A stretch of 24,127 bases of DNA from a virus (lineage: Duplodnaviria > Heunggongvirae > Uroviricota > Caudoviricetes): the IMG/VR virus record IMGVR_UViG_2703718829_000007, positions 1-24,127 of that record, one strand, 5' to 3'. This document shows positions 1-24,127 of this stretch, piece by piece (within the stretch, counting starts at the first letter, position 1; every line of letters starts with the position of its first letter). The position numbers and the translations under genes were made by a program. The notes beneath the pieces are model-generated. The model was not told where the DNA came from. It worked only from the letters and a program-made list of their open reading frames with translations, and did no database searches.

Positions 1-165
1 AATATAGGGGCAAATCCAGAGTCACAGAGAACCCAGAAAGATATCAAAGTGGCTGTTGCGGATGATGGTTGTGCTGCACGCCTTGTGCCTGCTGCCGCTG
101 CTGAGCGGTTGCGGAAGTACGCGGACAGTTTACGTGAGCACTCCGGCTACAACATTACCGACTAG
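1..165 (+). CDS. i-spanin (Rz-like) C-terminal fragment, 5' end cut by window edge
   Basis: Frame 1 is open from position 1 to TAG at 163-165 and fully overlaps the start of the downstream lipoprotein ORF in another frame, the classic overlapped spanin arrangement. The call rests on position and architecture, not on recognised motifs. Confidence 0.4.
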   Translation, partial: NIGANPESQRTQKDIKVAVADDGCAARLVPAAAAERLRKYADSLREHSGYNITD

Positions 166-319
166 TCTGACTTCTGAAACACCTGTACCGTTCATACCAA
201 ATCCTCTGACTTATGGTGCCAGCCTGGAGCTGAATGTGAGTCTGTTGTCTGCACTGGCTAACTGCAATCGGGATAAAGCTGATATTCGTAAAATAGATGC
301 AGAGAGAACTAACCATTAA
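62..319 (+). CDS. o-spanin outer-membrane lipoprotein (Rz1/LysC-like)
   Basis: N-terminus MMVVLHALCLLPLLSGCGS has a signal peptide and lipobox (LLSGC); the mature part is Pro/Thr-rich, as in Rz1-type proteins. The ORF starts inside the upstream ORF in a different frame. The track start at 56 is a TTG; ATG at 62 is preferred. Confidence 0.6.
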   Translation: MMVVLHALCLLPLLSGCGSTRTVYVSTPATTLPTSLTSETPVPFIPNPLTYGASLELNVSLLSALANCNRDKADIRKIDAERTNH

Positions 320-340: not shown

Positions 341-967
341 TCAGTTGTCAAATGAATATACGTTAAAGGTATATGTCGACATAATTTCACCAAGTACCTC
401 AATACATATACTTTTTTTATGAAAGATACTGGGGAAGGAACTTAGCTCTTCAAGGCATTGCACATAAGTGCTGATATCACTTGCATCACGTTCAAGGAAT
501 TTCACTTGGCCAAAAGAAGGAGTATTAATCCTAGTTCTTTGCTGGATTATATGGATAAAATGTGTAGTTGGTGAAACTATTACTCTTGAAATATCGGAAA
601 TGATGTCTTCTTGAACTTGCCGATAAAGTAAATCCTTTGGGTAATGGTGTTTGATCTCGATGGTTGCAACATTGCCATTATGTTCAGACGTTAATATCGA
701 CTGGTTATAAAGTGATATGTCAACAGCGCCGATACCGAGTTTTGGATGCTCACTTAAAGCAGTTAGTGTGCTGATTTGATTGAGAATAACAACTAACTCA
801 TCACGTATTTGAGTTTCATGTTTGCGATTGTAGAAGTAGCAATTCAGTTCATTTAACTTTTTATGCATCCTATCGTGACTAATTGCTTCGATCAGTAAAT
901 CCTGAATCATACTTTTCTCTAGGTAATCCGAACGGTTGTAAGTGACAGTATTGTGCTGGCATGTCAT
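341..967 (-). CDS. hypothetical protein, second gene of an AT-rich two-gene cassette
   Basis: 208-aa ORF on the strand opposite to the whole late operon, visibly AT-rich, lying 43 bp downstream of a co-directional 111-aa ORF. No motif recognised by eye. Confidence 0.55.
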   Translation of the reverse strand: MTCQHNTVTYNRSDYLEKSMIQDLLIEAISHDRMHKKLNELNCYFYNRKHETQIRDELVVILNQISTLTALSEHPKLGIGAVDISLYNQSILTSEHNGNVATIEIKHHYPKDLLYRQVQEDIISDISRVIVSPTTHFIHIIQQRTRINTPSFGQVKFLERDASDISTYVQCLEELSSFPSIFHKKSICIEVLGEIMSTYTFNVYSFDN

Positions 968-1010
968 TAGTATGTAAAGGTATTGTGAATGCCAGCAAGA
1001 TAACGAAGTA

Positions 1011-1346
1011 TCATCGATAGAAAAACTTTACGGCCCACTCGTAAACCGCTTTGTAAATCGGTTCATGGTAAATACTATCGATACTATTCAGATGTGCGAT
1101 CATCGCCTCCACAGTTGTAGTGGTTGTTTCTAATATTTCGATTATTGCAGGGCGGTCATCATCTTCATCGAAGTATTCGAACAGCAGTACAGGTTTACCA
1201 TGCCATTCAGCATCTGAGACTCTAAGGTTACAACTACCGCTCAACTCAAAGTGAATTTTGTAATTACCTTCTACAGAATGGCCTACGGGGAAAAAGCATA
1301 GGGTGTCATCTTTGTTTAAAAGCCATTCCCATTCATAACTATTCAT
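1011..1346 (-). CDS. hypothetical acidic protein, first gene of the AT-rich two-gene cassette
   Basis: The track ORF runs 1011..1364, but the second in-frame ATG (1344-1346) is preceded by AGGAG at 6-7 nt spacing, while the first ATG has no Shine-Dalgarno. The protein has an acidic stretch (FEYFDEDDDRP) and a TTTT run; no recognisable domain. Confidence 0.55.
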   Translation of the reverse strand: MNSYEWEWLLNKDDTLCFFPVGHSVEGNYKIHFELSGSCNLRVSDAEWHGKPVLLFEYFDEDDDRPAIIEILETTTTTVEAMIAHLNSIDSIYHEPIYKAVYEWAVKFFYR

Positions 1347-1496
1347 TTGTGAACTCCTGTTCATTGAGTTTCAACAACTATCAACTACATCCAGCGAAGC
1401 ATAAAAGATCGTTTATGGCAAAACCGGAGTGGAGTGCGATTCGATTCTGAGAAGGATGCCACGTATCGCACGCGAACCACCCAAGAGGATTATGCA

Positions 1497-1847
1497 ATGC
1501 CACCACGAACCCCAAAAGCCTGCCGTGTTCGCGGCTGCCGCCATACCACTACTGACCCGTCAGGCTACTGCGAAAGCCACAAAAGCGAAGGCTGGAAGCA
1601 ATACAAGCCAGGCCAGTCCCGACACCAGCGCGGTTATGGTTCGAAATGGGATGTTATCCGTGAACGTGTCCTGAAGCGTGACAAAGGCCTGTGCCAGTTG
1701 TGCCTGCGTGCTGGTGTGGTGCGTGAGGCGAAAACCGTTGATCACATCATCCCTAAAGCGCATGGCGGCACCGATGCAGACAGTAATCTGCAGAGCCTGT
1801 GCTGGCCGTGTCATAAGGCGAAGACGGCCCGTGAACGGCTGAAGTAA
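1497..1847 (+). CDS. HNH endonuclease, terminase-associated
   Basis: Cys pairs (CRVRGCRH...CESH) and an HNH motif (VDHIIPKAHGGTDADSNLQSLCWPCHKAK). ATG at 1497 is preceded by AGAGGA; the track start at 1434 is a GTG with no RBS. Sits directly upstream of the terminase genes, as in HK97-like phages. Confidence 0.85.
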   Translation: MPPRTPKACRVRGCRHTTTDPSGYCESHKSEGWKQYKPGQSRHQRGYGSKWDVIRERVLKRDKGLCQLCLRAGVVREAKTVDHIIPKAHGGTDADSNLQSLCWPCHKAKTARERLK

Positions 1848-7732: not shown

Positions 7733-8056
7733 ATGCTTCTGACAATGGAAGAGATTAAAGCCCAACTCCGGCTGGATGAGGATTTCGATGCTGATGACCG
7801 CCATCTGCAACTGCTGGCCTGTGCGGCACAAAAGCGGACGGAAACGTATCTGAACCGGAAGCTCTATGCACCGGATGAAACCATTCCGGACAGCGATCCG
7901 GACGGGCTGCACCTGCCGGATGATATTCGTCTGGGGATGCTGATGCTTATCAGCCATTTTTACGAAAACCGCTCGTCGGTTACGGAAGTGGAGAAACTCG
8001 ACATGCCGCAGAGTTTTGGCTGGCTTGTCGGCCCGTACAGGTACTTTCCGCAATGA
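7733..8056 (+). CDS. head-tail connector protein (gp6-like)
   Basis: 107 aa, N-terminus MLLTMEEIKAQLRLDEDFDADD, typical of gp6-like head-tail connector proteins; position after the capsid gene. Confidence 0.78.
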   Translation: MLLTMEEIKAQLRLDEDFDADDRHLQLLACAAQKRTETYLNRKLYAPDETIPDSDPDGLHLPDDIRLGMLMLISHFYENRSSVTEVEKLDMPQSFGWLVGPYRYFPQ

Positions 8057-13850: not shown

Positions 13851-14381
13851 ATGAAAGGCTATATCACAGCAAGTGTAATTCTTGGAGCGGCGGCTATTTT
13901 TTCATCTCTCATAATCTCTGGCAACATCTCCTTTAAAGATGAACATATTATTCAGTTATCTGGAGGAGCCATAAAACTTGGTGATGTTTATAAAGAAAAT
14001 AAATTGATAAGTGCAAAGATTATTTTTCCAGATAATCAGGGTGAACAGATTCTTGTTGTCGACGGCAATCCTGAAAACTTTAAGGAGGATTTTCAGGAGA
14101 AATTAAATAAAGTAATAAAAACTTTAAATGCGTCAAAGAAAAAAGATGAAGAGAAAGTTAGCCTGGATAATTTAAGTGTTGTTGAAGAGTCTAAACTAGA
14201 GCTCGTTTCTGCGGTGCGTTACTCTGCTCAGTATGTTCCTATGTTTACTCTGACGCTGGACAAAAAAGAAATTACCATGCCTAAAAATACGGTAATATTT
14301 CCATTTGCCAGCGATGAAACAGCTAAGTATTTAAATGAACAACAGCAAAAGTATAAAGATTCGTTGTTTCTGACTCGCTAA
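13851..14381 (+). CDS. hypothetical exported or membrane-anchored protein (insertion in the tail module)
   Basis: 176 aa, visibly AT-rich and Lys/Asn/Ile-rich, unlike the flanking genes. N-terminal hydrophobic segment (ITASVILGAAAIFSSLIISG) with no lipobox Cys. Flanked by a promoter-like sequence upstream and a hairpin terminator downstream. Confidence 0.6.
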   Translation: MKGYITASVILGAAAIFSSLIISGNISFKDEHIIQLSGGAIKLGDVYKENKLISAKIIFPDNQGEQILVVDGNPENFKEDFQEKLNKVIKTLNASKKKDEEKVSLDNLSVVEESKLELVSAVRYSAQYVPMFTLTLDKKEITMPKNTVIFPFASDETAKYLNEQQQKYKDSLFLTR

Positions 14382-16847: not shown

Positions 16848-17395
16848 TGAGGACGATTGAAGCCATGCAGCGACAACTCCTCGGCCTGATTGGGCGGGCC
16901 GTGGTGAAAAGCATCAGTGCCGCCACGAAATGTCAGACCGTGGATGTGTTCCTGATTGCCGGTGAACCCAAAGCCGGGGTTGAACATCTTGAACCCTACG
17001 GTTTTACCGCAAGGGCAAACAGCGGTGCGGAAGCGGTGGTGTTGTTTCCGGATGGCGACCGTTCTCATGCGGTGGTTGTTACGGTGTCGGACCGTCGCTA
17101 CCGCCTGAAAGGGCTGCAGACGGGTGAGGTGGCTGTCTATGACGATCAGGGGCAGTCCGTGACGCTGACCCGGGAGGGGATCGTGGTGGACGGTGCAGGT
17201 AAAACGATCACGTTTCGCAATGCACCTGAAGCACGTTTTGAAATGGACCTGGAAGTGACAGGACAGGTGAAAGACCTGTGCGACTCCGGCGGCACCACCA
17301 TGTCAGCGATGCGGCTTGCCTATAACGGGCATAGTCACAGAGAGAACGGTCAGGGCAGTAACACCGACAAACCGGATAAAGCGATGGAGGCATGA
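16847..17395 (+). CDS. baseplate spike / assembly protein V-like
   Basis: 182 aa, coupled (ATGA overlap); C-terminal region with an HSH motif; position matches the gpV-like spike of Mu-like baseplates. Confidence 0.75.
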   Translation: MRTIEAMQRQLLGLIGRAVVKSISAATKCQTVDVFLIAGEPKAGVEHLEPYGFTARANSGAEAVVLFPDGDRSHAVVVTVSDRRYRLKGLQTGEVAVYDDQGQSVTLTREGIVVDGAGKTITFRNAPEARFEMDLEVTGQVKDLCDSGGTTMSAMRLAYNGHSHRENGQGSNTDKPDKAMEA

Positions 17396-17820
17396 TGGAA
17401 CTGTGGCTGACGGTGAACGGTAAACGCACCTGCGCCAGCGCACCGCTGGATCCGCTGACCCGCGCCGTGGTGATTTCCCTGTTTACCTGGCGGCGGGCGG
17501 AGCCTGATGACAACGCCGACGTCCCGATGGGATGGTGGGGGGATACCTGGCCTGCGGTACAGAATGACCGTTACGGCTCCCGACTGTGGCTGCTTCAGCG
17601 CAGCAAACTGACCAATCAGCTGGTGCAGACGGTAAGGGGGTATATCCGCGAATGCCTGCAATGGATGATTGATGATGGCGTGGTGTCCCGTATTGATCTG
17701 GATATCCGCCGCACCGGGATTAATGAACTGGGTAACAGTATCACTCTCTGGCGTCGTGACGGACCGGTAATGATTTCTTTTGATGATCTGTGGAGTGCGA
17801 TAACGCATGGCGGACAGTGA
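17392..17820 (+). CDS. baseplate wedge protein (Mu gp46 / GPW-gp25-like)
   Basis: 142 aa between the spike and the J-like protein; coupled start. Confidence 0.65.
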   Translation: MMELWLTVNGKRTCASAPLDPLTRAVVISLFTWRRAEPDDNADVPMGWWGDTWPAVQNDRYGSRLWLLQRSKLTNQLVQTVRGYIRECLQWMIDDGVVSRIDLDIRRTGINELGNSITLWRRDGPVMISFDDLWSAITHGGQ

Positions 17821-18865
17821 ATTTCAGCGCCCGACGCTGGCAGAAAATATCAGTATGCTCCGTAACGATTTATTCGCCAGGCTGGACGTCAGCGACACGC
17901 TCCGGCGCATGGATGAAGACGTGCGGGCAAAGGTGTATGCGGCGGCGCTGCATACGGTTTACGGGTACATCGATTATCTGGCAATGAACATGCTGCCTGA
18001 CCTGTGCGATGAGTCCTGGCTGGCGCGACATGCTGCGATGAAACGGTGTCCGCGCAAGGGGGCCACGGCTGCCAGCGGGTATATGCGCTGGGAAGGTGTC
18101 AGCGATGGCCTGAAGGTGACCGCCGGGAGTGTTATTCAGCGCGATGACCTGGTTCAGTACACGGCAACTGCTGATGCAACCAGCTCCGGTGGTGTCCTGC
18201 GCGTGCCGATCACCTGCTCAACTACAGGCGTGGTCGGTAACGCTGACGACGGTACGGCATTAATCCTGGTCACGCCGGTGAATGGTCTGCCGTCTTCCGG
18301 CGTGGCAGATACACTGACAGGTGGATTTGATACTGAAGAGCTGGAAACGTGGCGCGCCCGCGTCATTGAGCGGTATTACTGGACGCCTCAGGGCGGGGCT
18401 GACGGGGACTATGTCGTCTGGGCTAAAGAAGTACCCGGCATTACCCGCGCATGGACATACCGACACTGGATGGGAACGGGGACTGTCGGTGTGATGATTG
18501 CCAGCAGTGACCTGATTAATCCCATTCCGGAAGAGTCAACGGAAACGGCGGCAAGACAACATATCGGGCCACTGGCCCCGGTGGCAGGCTCTGATTTGTA
18601 TGTATTCAGGCCGGTGGCGCATAAAGTGGATTTTCATATCCGCGTGACGCCGGACACACCGGAAATACGGGCTGCCATCACCGCCGAGTTGCGTTCGTTC
18701 CTGCTGCGTGATGGTTATCCGCAGGGAGAACTGAAGGTGTCACGTATCAGTGAAGCGATTTCCGGTACGAACGGGGAATACAGCCATCAGTTGCTTGCCC
18801 CGGCGGACAATATCTCCATTGCAAAAAATGAGCTGGCGGTTCTGGGGACGATTTCATGGACGTGA
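17807..18865 (+). CDS. baseplate J-like protein
   Basis: 352 aa; position and size match Mu gp47 / Baseplate_J family. Confidence 0.8.
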
Positions 18866-20886: not shown

Positions 20887-22092
20887 TTATATTTTTGCTT
20901 TACTGATAAAATTATCTAGGGTTTTTCCTACGGTACGGCTAAGTATCACTGATTTTTTCTCTATTAATTGATAAAATATCATTGAACCAATTAAAGAAAG
21001 AGTGACGAATACTAAAAAGGAAGCAATGTATGCTAAATAAACGTTATTTGTATGAATATATACATATAGGTTTATTGGCATTATTGCAGATGAAAGAACT
21101 AACCAGTGAACAAGGTATAAAGAGAAAGAAATTTTCCCAAAAAATTGAACAAGTTTAGTGGATAGGAAATCGCGAATGTATCCTCTGGACATTACTAGAA
21201 TTAGCAATAATATTGCACCGACACCACGTAAAAACTCGTATGGGTGGTAAGGGAACATCCCAGGAATCGATAAGTCTTGCATGTTTATTAATGGGGCAAC
21301 AAAATAGTTCCCTGGTATAAAAATCCAACCCCAGGGATAGAATACCGGGCAACTTTGAAGTATCACTATAGCTAATATCATTAGCAAAGTAATAACGTAT
21401 TTTTCTTTGTTGTTAAATAAATTGCTTGTTTTTTCGTCGGCAAACAAGATGGATATCCATGCGCCAATGAGAAGAAAAAACACATAATATCCGTAACTAA
21501 AGATAGTAAATAAAAATAATAAAAGAATGCCATGCCTTGAATTATTTCTTCCTACCTGAGCAACAATTAATAGTAACAGCGAGCCCATAAACTCAGTCGA
21601 CATTGACCATATTACAGGGTTAAGAAATCTAGTTGAAAAATCTGTGGTATATAGCGTAAGAATGCCTTGCTTTATTACTTCATCGAAAGCTACATTTTCA
21701 TCGTGATCATAACGAAATCCAGATTTTACTAAGATATATCCAATAATACAGGAAGCAAATACAGGAACACCAAGTCGAATAAAACGACGTATTAATGATG
21801 CTATAAATGTTGTATTTGCTTTGAAGGCGCCAAGAAGAATTGCGCCAGATAAGATGAAAAAAACTATAGTAGCAAAATTACCATTGATAGTGAATACGAA
21901 TGGTGTCGTTTCAGTAAATTCGTAGAATTTTGAAAGCCAATAAGGGAATGCATCTGGGTAGTGTGAAAGCATAAAAAGCTTTGTTTCACCAAAAAAATGA
22001 CCATAAGCAACAATTATAGCCATTAGTCCGCGTAACCCATCAAAATATAGGATTCTGTTCTTTTTTTGTTCCAATTTATTGAACCTCATCAT
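20887..22092 (-). CDS. acyltransferase family 3 integral membrane protein (probable O-antigen / polysaccharide O-acetyltransferase, lysogenic conversion)
   Basis: About 400 aa, very hydrophobic with many predicted TM helices. N-terminal signature ...ILYFDGLRGLMAIIVAYGHFF... matches the conserved Arg/His region of AT3 acyltransferases (Oac/OafA-type). Visibly AT-rich. Start is uncertain: the track uses a TTG at 22137; the ATG pair at 22087-22092 fits family N-termini better. Confidence 0.8.
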   Translation of the reverse strand: MMRFNKLEQKKNRILYFDGLRGLMAIIVAYGHFFGETKLFMLSHYPDAFPYWLSKFYEFTETTPFVFTINGNFATIVFFILSGAILLGAFKANTTFIASLIRRFIRLGVPVFASCIIGYILVKSGFRYDHDENVAFDEVIKQGILTLYTTDFSTRFLNPVIWSMSTEFMGSLLLLIVAQVGRNNSRHGILLLFLFTIFSYGYYVFFLLIGAWISILFADEKTSNLFNNKEKYVITLLMILAIVILQSCPVFYPWGWIFIPGNYFVAPLINMQDLSIPGMFPYHPYEFLRGVGAILLLILVMSRGYIRDFLSTKLVQFFGKISFSLYLVHWLVLSSAIMPINLYVYIHTNNVYLAYIASFLVFVTLSLIGSMIFYQLIEKKSVILSRTVGKTLDNFISKAKI

Positions 22093-23096
22093 TTCAAAAT
22101 AGTGAGCAATGATAGTGTTAAGAGTGTAGTAAAGCAATGCCTTCTGGAATCGAAGTTAAAACAACGGAGCTTAAATTAGTTGAAGTGAGATTTGCTAATA
22201 AAGGTAATAAATTCAATCAATTACTTCTTGAGGGCGTATTGGTGTTAAGAAGATTTTAACATTGTATCACATACCACGGGGGCATTCTGATGAAATCAGA
22301 AAAATAGACAGGGTAATAGCTATCGATTGATGATGGTGGTTGCTATGCTTCATATAGAGTTTCCGATACTATCACGCACATTATTAATGATAGCAGAACG
22401 GTGGAGTTTAATGGTTGGCCAAGCCTTGTTGAACAATGGTTAATCATGCTGTTTTAATATACCTTCTTTGGAGAAAAATGCTAACAACTCCAACGTGCAT
22501 TGCCCGAGATTGGCTGTAACCATAATAATTTTATGGAGTTTATTGAATAAACCCGAGTTAGTAGACAGGATGACGCCTACCGGAACACCCGTTATGCGAT
22601 GCGGACGCTGTCCGGCATACCCAGCACGGTCATCCGGTTTAGCGCTTTGACCATCGCCGTTTCTGCCACTGAACGACGGTGATAACCCACTTTCTTTTTC
22701 CAAACATAATTGCTGGATAGGGTCAGGGTTATTATGATGCTTGGAATTATCGAACGCTGCCGCAGAATGTTAGAGAACGGAGCAATCCGGCAACGTGATC
22801 GGTGTGGGGGTAAAGACGATTTATAAATACTTTCCTGTCACAAGTCCAGCGCGTAATGCCAGTTCCCGAGTGTAGGTATGATCATGAAAAAGTGGTGCGC
22901 ACCTAAATATCTTTAATACAGGCGTAGGATGCCATGCATTAGGATCGGGTTAAACAGGGATGTTTACGTTCTGGAAAACTGCCCGCAGATAGCCGGCGTG
23001 ATCTAGAATGATTTTTGTGTACATATATGTGTACTGTACAAAAGAAGATTTGGCTTTTAATTTCAATAAAAACAATAAATTGAATTGTTTTTAAAA

Positions 23097-23194: not shown

Positions 23195-24127
23195 TTATGC
23201 CGGGTTTTTATAATTTTTCTTAATGTTTTCCGCACGTTCTGCTTTTTGGCGTGCTTCTGCTTTACGCTTATTGCTCATGTCGTTACGAATCTGTGCATGA
23301 CTCATTAACGCGAAGATAAAGGTGCCGCCGCAGATGTTCCCCGCTAAAGTAGGTAGTGCGAAGGGCCAGATGAAATCGCTCCAGTGCAGCGTACCGTTAA
23401 ACACCAGATAGAGGATTTCAACAGAACCGACCACGATATGGGTGGTGTCACCCAGGGCAATAAGCCAGGTCATCAATATAATCACCACAATCTTTGCCGC
23501 ACCCGCTGCAGGAAACATCCAAACCATAGTGGCGATCAGCCAGCCGGAAATGATCGCGTTGGCAAACATCTCGCTGGGGGTGTTCTTCATCACATCCATG
23601 CCGATTTTGACAAATGCATCGCGAGTTTCTTCATTGAAGATAGGCATATATTCAAATGCCCACGCCGCAATACCTGTCCCGAGAATATTACCCAGCAGCA
23701 CGACGCCCCATAACCGTATAAGTAAGCCGACGTTGCTCATTGTCGGTTTTTGCATGACGGGTAGTACCGCAGTCACGGTATTTTCGGTAAATAATTGCTG
23801 GCGGGCCATAATGACGATAATAAAACCAAAGGTATAACCGAGATTCTCCAGCAAGAAGCTGCCCGGCACACCTTCCAGTTCGACTTGAAATATCCCTTTT
23901 GCCAGTAACGAAGCGCCCATCGACAGACCCGCCGCAATGGCTGACCACAGTAGCGCCATTGCGTCGCGTTCCAGCTCTTTTTCACCATCCTGGCGGATAT
24001 GCTCATGAATTGCCATCGCCCGGGAGGGGAGTCGGTCTTCATCTATTTCTATTTTTTTGCCGCGCTCTTTTTCTTCGCTCTCAACTTCCATTTCGTCGCT
24101 GTGTTGATCAATTTTGTCGTTGTCCAT
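23195..24127 (-). CDS. yfdC: formate/nitrite transporter (FNT) family inner-membrane protein, YfdC-like (host gene)
   Basis: 310-aa ORF with a hydrophilic acidic N-terminus followed by multiple TM helices. The start codon is at the very end of the window. Codon usage is host-like. In E. coli-like genomes yfdC lies next to argW, a known prophage integration site. Confidence 0.75.
   Translation of the reverse strand: MDNDKIDQHSDEMEVESEEKERGKKIEIDEDRLPSRAMAIHEHIRQDGEKELERDAMALLWSAIAAGLSMGASLLAKGIFQVELEGVPGSFLLENLGYTFGFIIVIMARQQLFTENTVTAVLPVMQKPTMSNVGLLIRLWGVVLLGNILGTGIAAWAFEYMPIFNEETRDAFVKIGMDVMKNTPSEMFANAIISGWLIATMVWMFPAAGAAKIVVIILMTWLIALGDTTHIVVGSVEILYLVFNGTLHWSDFIWPFALPTLAGNICGGTFIFALMSHAQIRNDMSNKRKAEARQKAERAENIKKNYKNPA

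Follow-up and report, generated by a model that had tools for sequence, protein, structure and literature searches.

Do two adjoining genes set against the direction of a phage late operon make up one defense system, or are they two pieces of cargo that happen to lie side by side? The question is raised by a cassette near the left end of a 24,127-nucleotide (nt) stretch of DNA from a virus of the class Caudoviricetes (IMG/VR record IMGVR_UViG_2703718829_000007, positions 1 to 24,127; this entire stretch is denoted the window below). The window starts within the lysis cassette of an Escherichia coli prophage. The space that separates the Rz/Rz1 spanin genes from the HNH/terminase genes is occupied by two co-directional minus-strand open reading frames (ORFs), called at 341..967 (208 amino acids, aa) and 1011..1364 (117 aa), which are opposed to the late operon, in the place and orientation that a sequence-only reading of the window had described. 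The same reading proposed that the two genes could form an antitoxin/toxin or sensor/effector pair and that they are the best candidate in the window for an undescribed anti-phage system. The interpretation that we slightly favor is a different one: two unrelated, independently mobile morons appear to be stacked in a lysis/packaging hotspot of an e14/SfV-like E. coli prophage, and the first of them, the gene for a predicted nuclease of 189 aa, would likely act as a methylase-less anti-phage barrier.

Independent distribution of the two genes

The co-occurrence of the two genes was assessed in 125 loci, drawn from annotated and reference genomes as well as from viral contigs and metagenomes, in which six-frame ORFs were compared with the profiles of both proteins, with filters off and E values up to 10. 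Both genes are present in 54 of these loci, but these amount to about 28 contigs, sampled redundantly, that carry one cassette, at about 97% or higher protein identity to the window. In 47 loci, the nuclease gene is found without the small gene; its identity is 34-72%, apart from E. coli alleles that reach 94-96% (L085, L086 and L089). The small gene without the nuclease gene is found in 18 loci, with 50-72% identity where a tblastn comparison was made. There is no credible trace of the missing partner in either of the latter two groups, the sole match at E values up to 10 having an E value of 9.

The surroundings of each gene vary accordingly among genera. Upstream of the nuclease gene, there is an unrelated 77-aa gene in Enterobacter, a terminase start 41 nt away in Citrobacter, no ORF in Yersinia and nothing next to a non-prophage chromosomal homolog; in the E. 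coli locus L085, which lacks the small gene, this place is taken by a gene for a 151-aa membrane protein on the opposite strand. The small gene, for its part, is found by itself in L013-L018 and L118, with terminase genes on one side and lysis genes on the other, one of these loci coming from Serratia. Furthermore, in three E. coli contigs (L047, L048 and L049), the nuclease gene is split by an IS3-family element and the small gene is intact; in L047 (4553-5790), the insertion follows codon 57 of the 208-aa reading, and a second HNH/terminase small subunit (TerS) copy comes after it.

The pair model, under which the acidic 111-aa protein neutralizes or controls the 189-aa nuclease, draws on the situation in E. 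coli, where the genes lie 100 bp apart in the same direction and are nearly always found together (the nuclease gene in 80 and the small gene in 79 complete genomes), as well as on the familiar pattern of an acidic inhibitor encoded beside a nuclease. There is a similar likeness to type II toxin-antitoxin (TA) modules with a nuclease toxin, in that the nuclease-like ORF is immediately preceded on its strand by a small acidic ORF. However, all E. coli copies are at least 95% identical and represent one cassette, hence they hold no evolutionary information on the pairing, and the linkage reflects one recent juxtaposition rather than selected linkage. Unlike the partners of a TA module, these genes do not co-vary, the 100-bp gap between them contains promoter-like and terminator-like sites, and the gene order and sizes are conserved nowhere beyond the one cassette. 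Adjacent co-occurrence across diverged lineages, which would be expected of a two-gene system, does not appear in the compared loci: those of the two single-gene groups above hold one gene without the other, other or no genes lie upstream of the nuclease elsewhere, and the disrupted nuclease copies retain an intact neighbor. Thus, the proposal of an antitoxin/toxin or sensor/effector pair is not borne out, and we consider joint action of the two proteins highly improbable; on the comparative sequence data, the genes are unrelated, independent single-gene units that happen to adjoin. More generally, finding a small acidic ORF beside a larger one in one genome does not speak for a toxin-antitoxin or sensor-effector pair; in this case, the comparison across genera showed two separate units.

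A different arrangement was observed in a distant branch of the nuclease family, where two homologs (P0048 and P0060) are encoded directly downstream of large DUF2779 proteins (L012, 4517-6555; L125, 178-2859), which hints at a two-gene arrangement with DUF2779 in that branch.

The larger gene encodes a predicted PD-(D/E)xK nuclease

The larger ORF most likely starts at M20 (ATG at 910-908), such that the gene occupies 341..910 on the minus strand and encodes 189 aa (WP_000613841.1, PHROG 12494) rather than the 208 aa of the sequence-only reading. This start is the one annotated by the Prokaryotic Genome Annotation Pipeline (PGAP), the PHROG 12494 profile matches from residue 20, and every homolog begins at the same point (MIQDLL...). 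The 19-residue extension is missing from every homolog outside E. coli, there is no Shine-Dalgarno sequence before the ATG at 967, and 3 of the 19 extension residues differ between the window and L085, compared with 96% identity over the rest of the protein. The in-frame 19-codon 5' extension (911..967, minus strand) is therefore probably untranslated.

No match to the larger protein was detected in Pfam, NCBIfam or PADLOC at E values up to 1, and PHROG 12494 is without an assigned function. The family is rare, given that its profile matched just 42 of 1.84 billion representative proteins at E values up to 1e-3, and homologs with at least 60% identity come from Enterobacterales only. In an alignment of 33 members that extends down to 20% identity, K30, E32, D64, E85, K87 and D93 are invariant, and N28, R36, E54, P56, D106 and Y180 are nearly so. 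The statement of the sequence-only reading that neither protein shows an assignable motif thus fails for the larger protein, with its invariant E...D...ExK signature.

An AlphaFold2 model of this protein (predicted local distance difference test, pLDDT, 83.7; predicted template modeling score, pTM, 0.84) contains an alpha-beta-beta-beta-alpha-beta core, in which E32 opens the helix 30-46, D64 lies just before the strand 65-68, and E85-x-K87 falls within the strand 80-89. This placement of the four residues is the active-site layout of PD-(D/E)xK enzymes, and E32, D64, E85 and K87 are accordingly the candidate catalytic residues. The model thus predicts for the protein both the core fold and the catalytic signature of the PD-(D/E)xK superfamily, from which we infer that it is a metal-dependent endonuclease. 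Some of the 33 homologs show weak similarity to known families of this superfamily, namely two to HSDR_N (1.4e-4), one to PDDEXK_9 (0.022), one to SduA (1e-5) and three to REase_II. In an hhalign comparison of the wide family alignment with single PD-(D/E)xK or DUF2779 proteins of the neighboring loci, the probability was below 1%, and profiles of the family have no significant match among PDB sequences. The structural check suggested by the sequence-only reading (AlphaFold2 models compared by Foldseek) thus yielded a predicted nuclease fold for one of the two proteins, no significant Foldseek match for it, and a model of the small protein that cannot be used. Taken together, the model and the alignment point to an undescribed, rare family of predicted stand-alone restriction-fold nucleases that reside in prophage cargo slots.

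The small acidic protein

The small gene (1011..1346, minus strand; WP_001089762.1, PHROG 14397) encodes 111 aa from the ATG at 1346-1344, a start that is shared by PGAP, PHROG 14397 (aligned over 1-111 of 111) and all homologs, and that is preceded, after a 7-nt spacer, by the ribosome-binding site AGGAG, read as the reverse complement of 1354-1358 (1354..1358, minus strand). The sequence-only reading was right on the length of this protein, on its strong ribosome-binding site and on its acidity (isoelectric point 4.56; 20 aspartates and glutamates versus 8 lysines and arginines). The sequence contains neither a signal peptide nor a membrane segment, which suggests a cytoplasmic protein, and has no match in Pfam, NCBIfam or PADLOC (the last at E values up to 1) and no significant match in PDB. 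Members of the family come from Enterobacterales only (Escherichia, Citrobacter, Hafnia, Serratia, Pantoea and Pectobacterium). They share the DEDDD patch (residues 60-64), P20 and D45, both of which are invariant, the near-invariant H94 and a C-terminal PIYKxVYEWA helix. The AlphaFold2 model is unusable because its pLDDT is 56. A repeated match of residues 45-109 (window 1011-1214) to the CPR-C4 cysteine protease (7ob6), centered on DEDDD and PIYKxVxExA, was rejected, being non-significant (E values of 0.12-0.19) and devoid of a conserved catalytic cysteine. As a weaker addition to the boldest reading of the nuclease, given below, the small protein might act independently as an anti-nuclease or a decoy of a new fold.

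Both cassette genes are subject to purifying selection. The dN/dS ratio of the nuclease gene is 0.10 in the comparison with L085 and 0.12 in the comparison with Yersinia, and that of the small gene is 0.24 against the closest allele. For diverged pairs, the proportion of synonymous differences (pS) is saturated, at 0.82-0.91, with a proportion of nonsynonymous differences (pN) of 0.16-0.21; in the most distant pair of each gene, pN reaches 0.30-0.36.

A cargo slot between the lysis and packaging modules

The cassette is bordered on the left by lysC (56..319, plus strand), the gene for the Rz1-like o-spanin, which is conserved as a flank, ends at 319 and is convergent with the nuclease gene at a distance of 21 nt, and on the right by the gene for an HNH endonuclease (1497..1847, plus strand), the equally conserved flank that opens the packaging module. 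The HNH gene is followed on the plus strand by a P27-family TerS, the terminase large subunit (TerL), an HK97-type head module and a contractile tail. In the annotated genome NZ_CP101274.1 (L001), the interval from the spanin to HNH is 100% identical to the window and the gene order is the same. The base composition sets the cassette apart from the flanking genes, in agreement with the AT-richness that the sequence-only reading had pointed out: its GC fraction is 0.375 (z = -4.3), whereas 1,024-bp windows taken from the late operon have a mean of 0.548 and a standard deviation of 0.040, and GC at third codon positions is 0.33-0.39 in the cassette genes versus 0.56-0.68.

In related prophages, the same junction holds different cargo. 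With lysC and HNH as constant flanks, the slot has no gene in L019 (27 bp), contains one 169-aa gene in L020, two small genes in each of L021 and L023, and a GrlR-like gene in L024; in L022 (529-1716, minus strand), there is a further two-gene cargo, consisting of a ClpP-like gene (Pfam CLP_protease, E = 2e-12) and a 182-aa gene, with no PADLOC match. The flanks of the 2.4-kb region were found in 1,302 of 5,426 complete E. coli genomes and the entire region in 76, and about 80 of the complete genomes (about 1.5%) carry the cassette. Among plasmids, a protein search with the nuclease alone returned a single fragment from one plasmid record. Because the slot of relatives is empty or otherwise filled, the cassette is dispensable accessory cargo, and the variable content of the slot (empty, or occupied by at least five other types of cargo), together with the foreign composition, identifies it as a moron hotspot. 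The accessory-gene site and the differing cargo that the sequence-only reading had anticipated are thus observed, and the PADLOC run that it recommended places neither protein in a known defense family.

The lambda bor gene lies at this slot, after Rz/Rz1 and before cos/terminase. The resemblance extends to the orientation opposite to the late operon, the foreign composition, the variable content and the dispensability of the cargo. The proteins differ: Bor is an unrelated outer-membrane lipoprotein, and the slot described here holds two stacked units, one of which encodes a predicted nuclease. The literature on hotspots and morons that was searched holds nothing specific to this slot.

A fossil 5' end of a Terminase_2-type TerS gene (1415..1450, plus strand; 36 nt, 12 codons, MAKPEWSAIRF*) delimits the variable region on its right side. 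It aligns with the live TerS start (MAKPDWG...) that other prophages have at a distance of about 68 bp from the small gene, and the phage that carries this Terminase_2-type fossil has a real TerS of the P27 family. The same fossil borders the different cargo of L022 (around 1808-1845), occurs also in L003 (around 7940-7965) and is missing from the empty slot of L019; in Enterobacter, a similar second terminase fossil is located upstream of the nuclease gene. These terminase fossils at the borders of the slot suggest that cargo is exchanged via recombination in the conserved flanks, that is, the 3' end of the spanin gene and the 5' end of the terminase gene.

Possible role of the nuclease

The case for a defensive role is one of guilt by association. 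In Proteus prophages (L064, 118-3018; also L107 and L109), the nuclease homolog adjoins the Lamassu genes LmuA(Cap4) and LmuB (E values of 1e-148 and 9e-237), and in Proteus L105 (734-1680) it adjoins a split PDC-S66 TIR gene; both defense systems sit in the same lysis/terminase slot as the homolog. Of the distant homologs, one belongs to an AAA_15/PDDEXK_4 island and another is found beside WYL/AAA genes. L001 contains a second slot with opposite-strand cargo, outside the window, where genes for TIR-domain and caspase-family proteins are located between the Q antiterminator and the holin (17017-18394, minus strand). On the strength of these neighbors, we put the probability that the nuclease is an anti-phage barrier close to, if perhaps a little short of, even. 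The suggestion that the cassette is the best candidate in the window for an undescribed anti-phage system is accordingly retained in part: the nuclease gene by itself is a plausible defense gene with no PADLOC, Pfam or NCBIfam match, and the pair is not.

Under this hypothesis, the nuclease would be made from the prophage in the lysogen and would cut the DNA of superinfecting phages as a methylase-less, restriction-like barrier. Self and non-self would be told apart by the substrate, through its modification state, under-methylation or DNA structure, or else by tight expression, and not by a partner protein, because the nuclease is solitary in most lineages. In lambdoid phages, the Q-modified polymerase reads through the late genes on induction; because both cassette genes face against the late operon, late transcription would run antisense through them and could lower their expression during the lytic growth of the prophage itself. 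The small gene would be a separate item of cargo beside the terminase, alone in many other enterobacterial prophages, rather than the source of an antitoxin or sensor for the nuclease.

Among known systems, the predicted fold of the nuclease comes closest to small type II restriction endonucleases (R.SwaI, 5tgq; MspI, BglI, ThaI, NlaIV, HincII and EcoRV), with which it shares no detectable sequence similarity. Unlike a type II restriction-modification (R-M) locus, which has an adjacent cognate methyltransferase, the locus consists of a lone gene inside prophages. Shedu SduA and Mrr/DpnI-like proteins resemble it in that they are lone PD-(D/E)xK enzymes without a methyltransferase. In contrast to Shedu, the nuclease has neither a DUF4263 match nor a sensor domain, and in contrast to type IV enzymes, it is modeled as a single compact 189-aa domain with no SRA, EVE/ASCH, winged-helix or similar module and no such Pfam match; the catalytic domain itself may read the modification. 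The protein accessions were not found in the literature searched or in the DefensePredictor supplements.

Several observations weigh against the two-unit, defensive interpretation. A solitary restriction-type nuclease should be toxic unless host DNA is spared, and no reader domain or inhibitor was found; in about 6% of the E. coli carriers, the nuclease gene is truncated or disrupted by an insertion sequence (IS), and the small gene never is. Some homologs are located in ordinary chromosomal contexts, neither gene was detected among 50,697 isolated phage genomes (megablast, and tblastn of both proteins), and PADLOC-DB v2.0.0 contains zero families matching either protein at E values up to 1. 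On the structural side, the AlphaFold2 model of the nuclease was built on 14 sequences, and a Foldseek search of PDB and BFVD with this model gave nothing below an E value of 0.01. Finally, the transcription signals described below are no more frequent than chance: this holds for the promoter-like site upstream of the nuclease gene, and one terminator-like site was found where 0.7±0.9 are expected.

The nuclease might alternatively serve phage DNA metabolism, as a structure-specific resolvase, a repair nuclease or an agent of host-DNA degradation, rather than the defense of the lysogen. Such a role sits poorly with a gene that is compositionally foreign, opposed to the late operon and absent from close relatives with an empty slot, hence dispensable; moreover, L001, with the identical cassette, already encodes RusA, the slot and the neighbors elsewhere are rich in defense genes, and the closest structural matches are sequence-specific restriction endonucleases, not resolvases. 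We regard this role as quite unlikely. A mobile function can be envisaged as well, with the gene encoding a free-standing PD-(D/E)xK homing endonuclease and being copied, by its action, into the post-spanin junction of co-infecting phages. The gene indeed always lies directly after Rz/Rz1 and is convergent with them in prophages of Escherichia, Enterobacter, Citrobacter, Yersinia and Proteus, and the terminase 5' fossils move with the cargo like co-conversion tracts. However, the flanking spanin and terminase sequences differ among genera with no common target site evident, many unrelated cargo genes use the same slot, and distant homologs are found outside phages, so that homing appears highly improbable.

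Another alternative is that the protein is the endonuclease half of a type II R-M system whose methyltransferase acts in trans, be it a Dam-like N6-adenine methyltransferase of the prophage or Dam/Dcm of the host, with host DNA being spared by its full methylation and phage DNA that is under-methylated, because it is incoming or replicates fast, being cut. The predicted fold and the size of the protein resemble those of a restriction endonuclease, L001 encodes a phage N6-adenine methyltransferase (Dam-like) at a distance of about 6 kb, the Yersinia prophage L008 has a D12-class methyltransferase gene 3.3 kb away, and the close family is confined to Enterobacterales, which are Dam-positive. Against this, there is no adjacent methyltransferase gene in the window or in any inspected locus and none within 8 kb in six Enterobacter loci or in the chromosomal locus L009, and Dam-like genes are common in phages irrespective of this nuclease. 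A methyltransferase in trans thus seems very unlikely. The boldest extension of the barrier hypothesis, namely that the 189-aa protein is the first known member of a new family of single-gene immune systems, a minimal methyltransferase-free restriction enzyme that discriminates between host and phage by an undescribed principle (for example, by cutting only under-methylated or replicating DNA) and is spread through recombination in the spanin and terminase flanks, is in our estimation unlikely.

Should the nuclease protect lysogens, a very small, methylase-free, restriction-like gene would join the defenses carried by prophages, and the question would arise how a nuclease of one domain spares its host. 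Further defense genes could then be sought at the lysis/terminase junction of e14/SfV-like and other lambdoid prophages, where several unannotated cargo genes are already present.

Putative signals around the cassette genes

In the interval between the two genes, a promoter-like pattern match, TTTACA-17-CACAAT (978..950, minus strand), is bracketed by a 14-nt inverted repeat, TATTGTGCTGGCAT / ATGCCAGCAAGATA (949-962 / 989-1002), which could be an operator or an RNA hairpin. The region 949..1002 travels with the nuclease gene, because the homology between the window and L085, which is without the small gene, starts at 1036. A putative terminator-like hairpin followed by a T-run falls within the last codons of the small gene (1020..1049, minus strand) and provides weak evidence that the two genes may be separate transcription units. 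Another candidate, CCAGTCCGGTTTTGCCATGTATAATCC, which is conserved before the nuclease gene of diverged loci and looks like a perfect -10 promoter element, occurs upstream of the small gene, too, and was rejected: it is not a promoter because it is the reverse complement of a Terminase_2 TerS start with its ribosome-binding site (ATGGCAAAACCGGACTGGGG, encoding MAKPDWG), live or fossil. No Rfam families or tRNAs were found in the window. At the junction with Rz1, a direct repeat, TTGTCAAATTAAT / TTGTCAAATGAAT (329-357, copies 16 bp apart), spans the stop codon of the nuclease gene and could be a junction scar or a chance occurrence.

Other cargo in the prophage

Beyond the tail-fiber genes, an AT-rich gene (20887-22137, minus strand; GC fraction 0.33) encodes a 416-aa Acyl_transf_3 protein (E = 3.5e-21) and looks like a serotype-conversion moron of the O-antigen-acetyltransferase type. 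An ORF of the formate/nitrite-transporter family (23195-24127, minus strand) presumably belongs to the host, which would place the end of the prophage between these two genes. Between the tape-measure and DNA-circularization genes, a 176-aa ORF (13851-14381, plus strand) with no Pfam or PADLOC match coincides with a patch of low GC fraction (0.44-0.47) and may represent a further cargo insertion inside the tail module.

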